32,000 bases of DNA. Source: an uncultured archaeon (GTDB taxonomy: Archaea > Iainarchaeota > Iainarchaeia > Iainarchaeales > JAAZKV01). Positions 3,025-5,301 of this stretch are shown one piece after another; position 1 is the stretch's first letter, and each line of letters begins with the position of its first letter. The notes beneath the pieces were generated by a model. It was not told where the DNA came from. It did not search any database and worked only from the letters and a program-made list of their open reading frames with translations. A program made the translations under genes and the position numbers. The stretch covers positions 867,329 through 899,328 of the forward strand of contig CAZKBG010000001.1 in assembly GCA_964551375.1 (NCBI GenBank), read 5' to 3'.

Positions 3025-5301
3025 TTAATCAACCCACGTCCAAGCATCCACAACAAAGTACTGTGTTTTTGAAGTGCCGCTGCAGTAAATTGAAGCAATA
3101 TTATTTCCAGGGCATTCTCTTACTACCTTTGAGCGGTTAATCACCGCATAAAGCCACCCGCTTGAATTTAATCTTTCATTTAAAAACAAAACACTCTGCC
3201 CGCTTGTTAGAGCGCTAATCGGCTCCTGTTTTAATAGAGTCCCGGTGTAGGGGTCGTTTAACAAAAAGTCAACGCTTGTCGCTCCAGTGGAAAGCGTTCC
3301 AGAATTTCTTGTATTCAAATCAAGCGAAACCTGGCTTGAGCCGATAGTAAATGCGCTCAAAATATTTAATGATAAATCCCTATAGTTAAAATCAATTTTC
3401 TGCGAATGATTAATATCCCACATTACAGGCGGGCGGTCAATTCCGTTAACATCCTTCCAGTAAAGCATTGTTCCCGGAGTTGGAAGAATTAAATTATTCA
3501 ACGAGCAGGCTTCAGGAGAGTCGCAGGGGATGTTCAAATCAAAAGTTCCAGCCCAAGGGTGGTCCTTATCAAGCAGCCCAATGTTATAGTAAAGATAATT
3601 TGAATCGCTTACTTTAATGCACATCCCCGCGCCGGGGCTTAAAACATTTGAGCAGTTGGATAATGGAATTAATAAATTTGCATCATTTGCTATTTCAGGA
3701 GGCTGGGTGGAAAGACTCTCTCCAATTCCAATCGCAATATAAGTGAAAACTTCTGACAATGCATCGCCGTCATCCGCTCGGTAATATTTTCCCCCTGTTA
3801 GCGAGGCAATGCTGCCAAGAATTGCATGGTCTGCATCAGCTCCAAAACCAATTGTGTAAACTATTACATTATTGTCCTTTGCAGTCTGCGCGGCAGTCAA
3901 GGGATTAGAGCCGGTATTGCTCTGCCCGTCGGAAAGAAGAACTAAAAAACGCATTGAGCCCGGAGTTGCGCGCGAGCTTGTGACTTCAGTTCTTCCAGTA
4001 GTAATTGCATCTCCAATCGCAGTGTTTCCGCTTGGAAGAAGAGCGGCGATTTTATTTTTCAAAACAGTCCTGTTAGCATCAGTCGCTTTTAATAGCTGCT
4101 GCTCAAGATAAGTGTAAGTGTTAAAACTCACAAGCGCAAGCTGGTCATACTGCTCCTTCCAGCCGTTGTAATCAATAAATGAGCTCGCTGAATGCTTTGC
4201 GGTGGACATTTTCTGCAAATTTAAATTCAAATCATAATTAATTGAATCATCGCTCCAGCCCTGAACAGTGTAAGTTCCAAGAACTGGATTAGTAATTGGA
4301 ATCTCAATCGGAGTGGCAGTGCTTGTTCCATTTGTCCCGGGAATATAAGTTCCGCTTGGAGAGCGGACTCTTAACCTTGGCCTATTGCACTGTCCCGCAT
4401 AACCTGAATAGCTCATAGTAACGCCGACTTTTGGCTCGCCGTCAATAAAAGAATCTGAAACAAAAGTTGCAAGCGTCTGCCAGTTGCCGTAACTATTGCA
4501 GTTGCCATTTTTCTTTGTCATAGTTCCTGAATTAAAAGAACCGCCGTTTAAGTGCTGGCGAAAAACAGTCAATTCATCCATAGAGCCTGAGGTGTCAAGG
4601 ACAACAGCAATATCAGCAGGAAGCCTTCCAAAAGTAATAGTGTAATCAGGAACTGAAATGTTTATATCAACATGAATATTATCATCGCATGATGCTTTAA
4701 TTGGCGCGACTCTTGCGTCAAAGAAAACATTCAAATCAATCCCGTTAGAATCAAAGAATAATCTCTTTGCCTTTCCTTCTAAGAATAATTTTTCAGCAGG
4801 GGAAGTTTTATTTGGAGAGAATACCGCGCCAATTGAGCACTGCTCTGGAGGCTGTTTGCTTGAAAGAAGAATTCTTTTATGAGACACAGTTTTATTTGTC
4901 GGAACCGCAGGACCCATCGGAGAATAATTGTAAAGCTTTGTAAAGCATGAATCAAAATTCTGGGTTAATGCGCACGTATCATAATTAGTGTCATACGCGG
5001 TGATTTCAAGCCGCAAATTTTCGTTTTGAGGAAGAAGAGAATCTATTTTTGAATAAACCGCGGACATTTTCTGGGGATTTGACAATAAATTTGAATCAAA
5101 AGTCTCAATAGCAAAGCCTGTTGAGTCAACCGCAAACAAAGCATCAGAGAGAGCATTCTTCATGGCAATATCGCGCATGTTATTTTGATTAGGGTTGTGA
5201 AAATAAGCTATTTGAAGAAAGCTTACAAACAGCACAAGCGCAATAAGCGATTCAAGCGAGAAAATAAACGCTTTACTTTGAAAAAACTTTGAATGAAACA
5301 T
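3025..5301 (-). CDS. Large pilin-like protein with von Willebrand factor A (MIDAS) domain; candidate pilus tip adhesin
   Basis: The track ORF starts at TTG 5307. ATG 5301 is preceded by a strong SD, GGGAGGT, 7 nt upstream. N-terminus MFHSKFFQSKA/FIFSLESLIALVLFVSFL is prepilin-like. MIDAS DTSGS lies at 4582-4596 within ADIAVVLDTSGSMDE. Later vWA elements: LALVSFNT, GNTAIGDAI, FLVLLSDGQSN, VIVYTIGFG. Confidence 0.82.
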   Translation of the reverse strand: MFHSKFFQSKAFIFSLESLIALVLFVSFLQIAYFHNPNQNNMRDIAMKNALSDALFAVDSTGFAIETFDSNLLSNPQKMSAVYSKIDSLLPQNENLRLEITAYDTNYDTCALTQNFDSCFTKLYNYSPMGPAVPTNKTVSHKRILLSSKQPPEQCSIGAVFSPNKTSPAEKLFLEGKAKRLFFDSNGIDLNVFFDARVAPIKASCDDNIHVDINISVPDYTITFGRLPADIAVVLDTSGSMDELTVFRQHLNGGSFNSGTMTKKNGNCNSYGNWQTLATFVSDSFIDGEPKVGVTMSYSGYAGQCNRPRLRVRSPSGTYIPGTNGTSTATPIEIPITNPVLGTYTVQGWSDDSINYDLNLNLQKMSTAKHSASSFIDYNGWKEQYDQLALVSFNTYTYLEQQLLKATDANRTVLKNKIAALLPSGNTAIGDAITTGRTEVTSSRATPGSMRFLVLLSDGQSNTGSNPLTAAQTAKDNNVIVYTIGFGADADHAILGSIASLTGGKYYRADDGDALSEVFTYIAIGIGESLSTQPPEIANDANLLIPLSNCSNVLSPGAGMCIKVSDSNYLYYNIGLLDKDHPWAGTFDLNIPCDSPEACSLNNLILPTPGTMLYWKDVNGIDRPPVMWDINHSQKIDFNYRDLSLNILSAFTIGSSQVSLDLNTRNSGTLSTGATSVDFLLNDPYTGTLLKQEPISALTSGQSVLFLNERLNSSGWLYAVINRSKVVRECPGNNIASIYCSGTSKTQYFVVDAWTWVD

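Follow-up and report, generated by a model that had tools for sequence, protein, structure and literature searches.

Two bacterial modular pilins bearing a vWA (von Willebrand factor A) domain are the closest described counterparts of the archaeal gene reported here. [quoted passage not shown] PilB is a vWA-bearing modular pilin that functions as a tip adhesin, in which arms flank the MIDAS and metal binding matters for function, and the accompanying survey of modular pilins covers bacteria only (PMC8179133). Reviews of archaeal type IV pili (T4P) mention vWA proteins solely as ArnB-type regulators (PMC4858521), and pilins are described as unrecognisable in DPANN loci (PMC6393860). Here we analyse a 758-residue pilin-like vWA protein encoded in a 32,000-nucleotide stretch of DNA (the window) from an uncultured archaeon of the Iainarchaeota (assembly GCA_964551375.1, contig CAZKBG010000001.1, positions 867,329 to 899,328 of the forward strand).

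We find that the vWA domain of this protein is predicted to be interrupted, just after the DxSxS motif of its metal site, by an autonomous beta-jelly-roll module, and that the same loop carries other whole domains in homologous proteins. The reading that we favour, with a probability of about 0.6, is that the protein is a large modular minor pilin of an Iainarchaeota Tad/Epd-like T4P, situated at the tip, where the MIDAS and the exchangeable module would bind a ligand on a host cell or a surface; both the adhesin role and cleavage of the signal are what we infer from the features described below. A literature search of incomplete coverage returned no account of a pilin-vWA fusion in archaea, consistent with an initial annotation of the window, made from the DNA letters and their translations, which had called such a fusion uncharacterised.

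A vWA domain predicted to be split after its DxSxS strand

The gene lies on the minus strand, and we favour the ATG at 5301 over the TTG at 5307 as its start because GGAGG lies 8 nt 5' of the former. The initial annotation had assigned a 758-residue open reading frame to 3025-5301, and we recover this frame with every listed motif in its place. The parts of the gene are as follows.

3025..5301, minus strand: whole gene P0001, a modular pilin-like vWA protein of 758 aa (open reading frame call and Pfam)
5269..5301, minus strand: basic leader MFHSKFFQSKA, aa 1-11, ending in a putative prepilin-peptidase site K-[G/A] (family conservation)
5197..5268, minus strand: sole hydrophobic helix, alpha1N, aa 12-35 (Kyte-Doolittle; AlphaFold2 helix 16-33)
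4618..5196, minus strand: alpha/beta domain D1, candidate pilin head, aa 36-228, in which Cys110, Cys119, Cys155 and Cys205 are invariant and the loop 159-187 is of low confidence (AlphaFold2 secondary structure)
4573..4617, minus strand: vWA strand beta1 and MIDAS loop D236-x-S238-x-S240, aa 229-243 (motif, AlphaFold2)
4210..4572, minus strand: predicted inserted beta-jelly-roll, aa 244-364, with conserved Cys268 and Cys305 and a GWSD motif (AlphaFold2 of the insert, Foldseek)
3712..4209, minus strand: remainder of the vWA domain, alpha1 to alpha6, aa 365-530, with MIDAS residues T427 (nt 4021-4023) and D458 (nt 3928-3930) (Pfam VWA, 8e-22; AlphaFold2)
3376..3711, minus strand: predicted all-beta domain C1, aa 531-642, with invariant Cys593 and Cys599 (AlphaFold2, family alignment)
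3028..3375, minus strand: predicted all-beta domain C2, aa 643-758, with a weak likeness to CARDB and an E-C-P-x-N-N ... C pattern that is invariant (AlphaFold2, family alignment)

Following DTSGS (residues 236-240, nt 4582-4596), a spacer of 121 residues that runs from LTVFRQ to NLNLQK (residues 244-364, nt 4210-4572) precedes the other recognisable elements of a vWA domain, which begin at residues 366 (STAKHS), 388 (LALVSF), 425 (GNTAIGDAI), 455 (LLSDGQSN) and 482 (YTIGFG). The Pfam VWA profile (PF00092) matches residues 363-519 at 78.7 bits (cut-off 23.8) over profile positions 15-172 of 174, and because this contiguous match omits the part of the profile that holds beta1 and DxSxS, these elements stand apart from the remainder of the domain. 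Fifteen unrelated vWA proteins from the same searches have only 4-14 residues, mostly 8, between DxSxS and alpha1, which makes the 121-residue spacer a real anomaly beyond ordinary variation and agrees with the earlier statement that a normal vWA domain has no such spacer.

An AlphaFold2 model of the full-length protein has a mean predicted local distance difference test score (pLDDT) of 81, and the underlying alignments are shallow, with 16 sequences for the full length and 9 for the insert alone. The model contains a disordered loop (159-187), strand beta1 (229-236), an all-beta block (246-362) and an all-beta C-terminus (538-757), and canonical vWA secondary structure is predicted to resume past the insert, with helices at 364-376, 408-419, 429-440, 467-476, 492-502 and 512-529 and strands at 387-393, 397-405, 450-457, 479-486 and 506-509. 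A Foldseek search of the PDB with the full model places the pilus-tip adhesins SpaC (6m3y), PitA (7w6b), Mfa5 (6to1) and PilB (7b7p/7ba2) at the top, with ArnB among the matches. Two single-domain vWA targets, BatB (3ibs) and the vWA domain of LapA (9no5), are aligned over 311-332 columns with target-normalised TM-scores (TMt) of 0.74-0.77; the number of columns indicates, as an indirect reading, that the alignment spans the insert, from beta1 across a gap of ~120 residues to alpha6. Strand beta1 and residues 364-529 are thus predicted to form a single vWA fold, the outcome that the initial annotation had anticipated for a check by AlphaFold and Foldseek.

All five MIDAS residues (D236, S238, S240, T427 and D458) are present, the DTSGS start of the site having initially been described as intact, and the site is conserved in ~90% of ~55 family members, with T427 in 51/55 and D458 in 54/55. 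The MIDAS loop reads D-R/K-S-G-S-M in most of them.

Modelled alone with AlphaFold2, the insert reaches a pLDDT of 90 and a predicted TM-score (pTM) of 0.84. Foldseek matches it to the beta-jelly-roll at the C-terminus of Tk-SP, a subtilase (3afg, E 1e-4), to KP-43 and to the Kex2 P-domain, and further to the collagen-binding domain of collagenase and several carbohydrate-binding modules, with query-normalised TM-scores (TMq) of ~0.5. Scanned singly, the modules give no significant Pfam match, and a profile built from 22 of them reaches a best E of 0.29 against the PDB; the resemblance to a proprotein-convertase P-domain, which the motif PRLRVxSPxG brings to mind, is at the fold level only. 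The models show an autonomous all-beta module of the beta-jelly-roll class, in line with the inserted beta-rich module that had been deduced from the spacer.

Beyond the vWA domain, the unassigned C-terminal tail noted initially does exist, and we find it to be smaller than the ~330 residues given for it, at ~228 residues (531-758). It is predicted to fold as the two all-beta domains C1 and C2, the second of which, in four of ten homologues and at about the same position, gives matches to CARDB (PF07705) of 12.6-17.1 bits (E 0.006-0.16) that fall short of the cut-off of 22.7. The twelve cysteines of the protein make six pairs, each within one domain, and eight of them (four pairs) are invariant; intradomain pairs of this kind fit an extracellular protein.

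Exchange of whole domains at the insert site

An exhaustive HMMER search collects 90 cluster representatives of the family at E <1e-30, and the family is matched in 96 of the phylum's 201 sampled genomes, with homologues that bear the names Ca. Iainarchaeum or Diapherotrites. Among GTDB species-representative genomes, a profile from a 6-sequence alignment identifies 4 true family loci. The distribution is patchy within the family of the window's own genome (4/33) and near-universal in other families of the order (18/18 and 21/22, for example). One Iainarchaeota genome (L073, 8788-13283) carries tandem vWA paralogues of 766 and 732 aa between genes for pilin-like proteins of 177 and 342 aa.

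The members share one order of parts, namely the N-terminal helix and D1, beta1 and its DxSGSM motif, an insert that varies, the remaining vWA elements and the C-terminal domain. An alignment of homologues, as the initial annotation had suggested, upholds conservation of the MIDAS in most members, with a few that lack DxSxS, and finds the insert site occupied with variable content in place of one conserved insert. An insert of ~120 residues corresponds to one jelly-roll, ~245 residues to two (P0003, L076), 371 residues to three (P0167, L004) and 1570 residues to eight, the last in a metagenomic protein of 2207 aa (P0043). Other homologues carry ~295 residues of LVIVD repeats at the same place, which would form one 7-bladed propeller, and inserts of ~440 and ~590 residues (P0027, P0029 and P0062) hold an LVIVD propeller with one or two nested DUF4082-like domains, so that in these three proteins a domain lies inside a propeller inside a vWA domain. 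The vWA domain of one relative, P0100, is unsplit.

When a maximum-likelihood tree is built from the conserved region (vWA and C-terminal), nine switches between jelly-roll and propeller inserts are needed, and well-supported branches force at least four of these; copy number differs even between the sister proteins P0003 (two) and P0167 (three). Against the 75%-identical homologue P0002, the insert is the least conserved part (64%), followed by D1 (68%), with the vWA and the two C-terminal domains at 78-87%. These comparisons identify the insert loop as a recurrent site of domain swapping, which is new here.

Does the insert do more than stabilise the protein? Its best structural matches are the C-terminal beta-jelly-roll of subtilases and P-domains, both of which serve folding and stability, and its conserved acidic motif GWSD(D/E) could, judged from sequence, bind Ca2+. 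The module might on these grounds be purely stabilising or calcium-binding, like the C-terminal jelly-roll of Tk-SP, with its variation between lineages reflecting neutral domain shuffling. We consider this quite improbable, as replacement by an unrelated 7-repeat LVIVD propeller and expansion to eight copies, all at one loop, are hard to explain by stabilisation alone, and the insert loop, judged from vWA topology, opens onto the MIDAS face. Exchange of modules at a single loop, whether of one to eight jelly-rolls or an LVIVD propeller, is what one would expect of a module that determines which host cell or substrate is chosen, as proposed in the tip-adhesin reading. A bolder form of that proposal, which we entertain only tentatively, is that the beta1-alpha1 loop is a cassette next to the MIDAS at which Iainarchaeota exchange whole ligand-recognition domains, making an "inverse integrin" head that chooses the host or surface, and that the split held in common with TadG/CpaL would then point to a split-vWA tip pilin already present in the archaeal ancestor of Tad pili.

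A pilin-like N-terminus within a pilus operon

The N-terminus of the 758-residue protein reads MFHSKFFQSKA followed by FIFSLESLIALVLFVSF, that is, a short basic leader, a small residue at position -1 and ~20 hydrophobic residues. Kyte-Doolittle windows above 1.6 begin only at residues 8-19, which marks a single hydrophobic segment at approximately residues 11-35. Most family members that keep the N-terminus follow the consensus [KR][GA], then F-V/I-F-S/T-L-E/D, then the hydrophobic helix, and the pattern of leader, [KR][GA] and hydrophobic helix is common to all five structural proteins of the operon, whose other genes are listed below (a slash follows the [KR]G pair). The prepilin-like N-terminus described initially is therefore corroborated by the family, in which the leader, K-A/G and one hydrophobic helix are conserved, and by the four neighbouring genes.

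6152..6568, minus strand: 138-aa pilin (KG/QVATEY), candidate major pilin, first gene of the operon (N-terminal pattern)
5782..6162, minus strand: 126-aa pilin-like protein (KG/QVSVE) (N-terminal pattern)
5273..5785, minus strand: 170-aa pilin-like protein (RG/QVSS), the 3' end of its gene overlapping the start of the vWA gene (N-terminal pattern)
2053..3021, minus strand: 322-aa pilin-like protein (RG/LLFT), always directly 3' of the vWA gene (N-terminal pattern)
1576..1983, minus strand: 135-aa protein upstream of the ATPase gene, longer in other genomes (open reading frame and comparison)
1..1568, minus strand: FlaI/TadA-type T4P ATPase (T2SSE), 522 aa, reaching the edge of the window (Pfam, NCBIfam)

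The match of the 138-aa pilin to Class_IIIsignal has an E of 0.018 only. Two genes for T2SSF (TadB/TadC-like) platform proteins follow the ATPase gene just outside the window. The order of the structural genes is kept in 8/8 distant Iainarchaeota genomes examined, and in metagenome contigs as well; the ATPase and platform genes adjoin in seven of the eight, with none within the stretch compared in the eighth. The genome itself (1.09 Mb, 93% complete) contains two Peptidase_A24 genes (639090-640223 and 697027-697836) with GGD/GGGD motifs, and one of the two encoded peptidases is a 378-aa protein with a long C-terminal extension.

A reading in which the vWA gene is unrelated to the pilus and merely sits beside its operon, encoding a BatA-like or other vWA membrane protein, draws on the best NCBIfam match, VWA_BatA, and on the best sequence match in the PDB, the membrane-spanning vWA protein 4rck. 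The NCBIfam match scores 71.5 bits against a cut-off of 380 (NF047508) and covers the vWA core only, and the gene occupies the same operon position in 8/8 genomes, with overlapping reading frames. We regard this reading as very improbable and reject it on score and gene context.

An uncleaved or never-extracted N-terminal helix would make the protein a membrane-anchored accessory protein or anchor that displays its vWA head at the cell surface or the pilus base, a role compatible with its single N-terminal transmembrane helix and lack of a match to a pilin family model, and with the bulk of a 758-residue subunit for a filament. Makarova 2016 refers to a hypothesis in which TadG serves as the membrane anchor of the pilus, the original proposal for bacterial TadG. 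Set against this are the conserved [KR][GA] site, common to the four neighbouring pilin-like proteins, the modular pilins of similar size (PilB, CpaL and CofB) that are modelled or shown at pilus tips, and the detection of TadG in pilus fibre preparations (PMC11870444). We judge an anchoring role to be unlikely.

Several further observations concern the surroundings of the structural genes. Homologues of the 135-aa protein elsewhere are 191-673 aa long, with apparently only the C-terminal part shared, and at locus L076 the gene in this position has a faint HTH_24 match. A gene for a PCC-domain protein (PF03479) lies just upstream of the operon, at 6890-7294 on the minus strand, and is also found in the loci of P0002 and P0003 (L075 and L076).

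Proposed role of the protein

In the proposed mechanism, one of the two A24 prepilin peptidases would cut after K10-A11, and the alpha1 helix would then dock into the filament with three or four of the other pilin-like proteins of the operon. By analogy with the GspK, CpaL and PilB tip complexes, the largest subunit would be outermost. The MIDAS (D236, S238, S240, T427 and D458) would bind Mg2+ or Mn2+, with an acidic group of the ligand completing the coordination. Because of the vWA topology, in which the jelly-roll would branch off where beta1 ends and rejoin at alpha1, this module is expected to sit on the MIDAS face, where it may serve as a specificity or co-binding module, and the two C-terminal beta-sandwich domains would extend or support the head.

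A number of observations weigh against this proposal. The 758-residue protein matches no pilin or class III signal model in Pfam or NCBIfam. D1 has no Pfam match and no similarity to the pilin module of TadG detectable by hhalign, and its status as a candidate pilin fold comes from AlphaFold2 secondary structure alone, in which strands follow helices at 16-33 and 39-60. The gene is present in only 4 of 18 genomes from the genus to which the window belongs. DxSxS is lost in two one-module members, P0036 (TKSGSL) and P0037 (degenerate), that retain the other architecture. Finally, deletion of CpaL in Caulobacter raises attachment rather than lowering it (PMC11870444), so a vWA tip pilin need not be a simple adhesin.

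Alternatively, the protein might act chiefly in priming and mechanosensing, nucleating assembly and reporting tension through force-sensitive unfolding of the vWA domain or the insert, as has been proposed for CpaL and PilY1. The architecture is shared with CpaL, and deleting CpaL changes both the number of pili and surface sensing (PMC11870444); the conserved intradomain cysteine pairs bring to mind a disulphide of PilY1 that responds to force, to which that paper also refers. A complete, conserved MIDAS and rapid swapping of a surface-exposed insert fit ligand recognition better, and no downstream signalling genes are seen in the operon at the loci compared. As the main function, mechanosensing appears unlikely to us; the two roles are not mutually exclusive.

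Should the tip-adhesin reading hold, it would matter for the way of life of these archaea: every DPANN archaeon cultivated so far, to our knowledge, attaches physically to a host cell, and the gene family would be a concrete candidate for host contact in Iainarchaeota, predicted to combine a metal-dependent site with a rapidly exchanged adjoining module. The variable insert could then mark host or substrate specificity in metagenomes. This family carries the "modular pilin" idea beyond bacteria, into archaea, and it supplies, in the split of the vWA domain after DxSxS, a shared structural oddity to set beside the proposal that the Tad pili of bacteria have archaeal ancestors.

Comparison with known systems

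TadG/CpaL resembles the 758-residue protein in its prepilin-like N-terminal helix, its small head and a vWA domain with complete MIDAS whose chain beta-rich domains break after the DxSxS strand; its gene likewise has as companions the genes for minor pilins of small size, for an ATPase of the TadA/FlaI type and for a platform of the split TadB/TadC type. Three bacterial proteins recovered in the profile search carry Pfam Tad (PF13400) and VWA with the same split. In a bacterial TadG-like protein, DIAVVLDTSGSM at residues 140-151 is identical in 12 of 12 positions to residues 230-241 of the archaeal protein, and the VWA profile resumes, at its position 20, only at residue 322. DxSxSM precedes alpha1 by a median of 160 residues in 119 of 120 retrieved homologues of one of these three proteins, all from Chloroflexota and several labelled TadG by JGI. 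The TadG-like proteins thus provide a bacterial precedent, at the same loop, for the split, which is not unprecedented, and because of it a split vWA domain in a pilin-like protein constitutes no new category. The archaeal protein differs from TadG in having no sequence similarity to it outside the vWA domain, with hhalign aligning only beta1 and DxSxS, and no match to PF13400 or PF09977. The insert folds also differ, with a jelly-roll or LVIVD propeller in the archaeal family and six-stranded barrels in CpaL, and the archaeal family, unlike TadG/CpaL, has an additional 228-aa C-terminal pair of beta domains and an archaeal host.

PilB of S. sanguinis (7b7p/7ba2), which Foldseek matches to the full model with an E of 1.6e-9, likewise bears a vWA domain with a functional MIDAS on a pilin module. 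Its arms, in contrast, are short loops, one of which is a 4-stranded sheet, rather than an autonomous 120-residue domain, and the protein, which belongs to a bacterial type IVa pilus, is without the C-terminal extension. The sortase-assembled and type V tip adhesins SpaC (6m3y), PitA (7w6b), RrgA and Mfa5 (6to1) are the best whole-model matches (E 1e-14 to 6e-12) and share a vWA domain with inserted arms beside the MIDAS and a beta-sandwich stalk; they differ in assembly by sortase or by protease-mediated strand exchange, and lack a class III signal.

The initial annotation had named PilY1 as the bacterial counterpart, and PilY1/PilC is indeed a vWA-bearing protein at the T4P tip. It is not itself a pilin, and it ends in a C-terminal beta-propeller (Pfam Neisseria_PilC). 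We reject a PilY1-type reading, since the Pfam scan finds no PilY1 propeller in the 758-residue protein and its C-terminus is predicted to form beta-sandwiches; TadG/CpaL and S. sanguinis PilB are closer. The propeller-type homologues, rather than the window protein, invite comparison with the integrin alpha headpiece, in which a vWA/I domain and a 7-bladed beta-propeller likewise make up a single ligand-binding head. The comparison goes no further than analogy, and the topology is inverted: the I domain lies within the propeller in integrins, whereas the propeller lies within the vWA domain in these homologues.

Taken together, these comparisons suggest an archaeal analogue of the TadG/CpaL/PilB modular tip pilins that is unrelated to them in sequence outside the vWA domain, a likeness that does not imply common descent beyond that domain. 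What is new here is the occurrence of this architecture in an archaeal DPANN lineage, with insert folds different from those of bacteria and with the insert loop as a recurrent domain-swap site.

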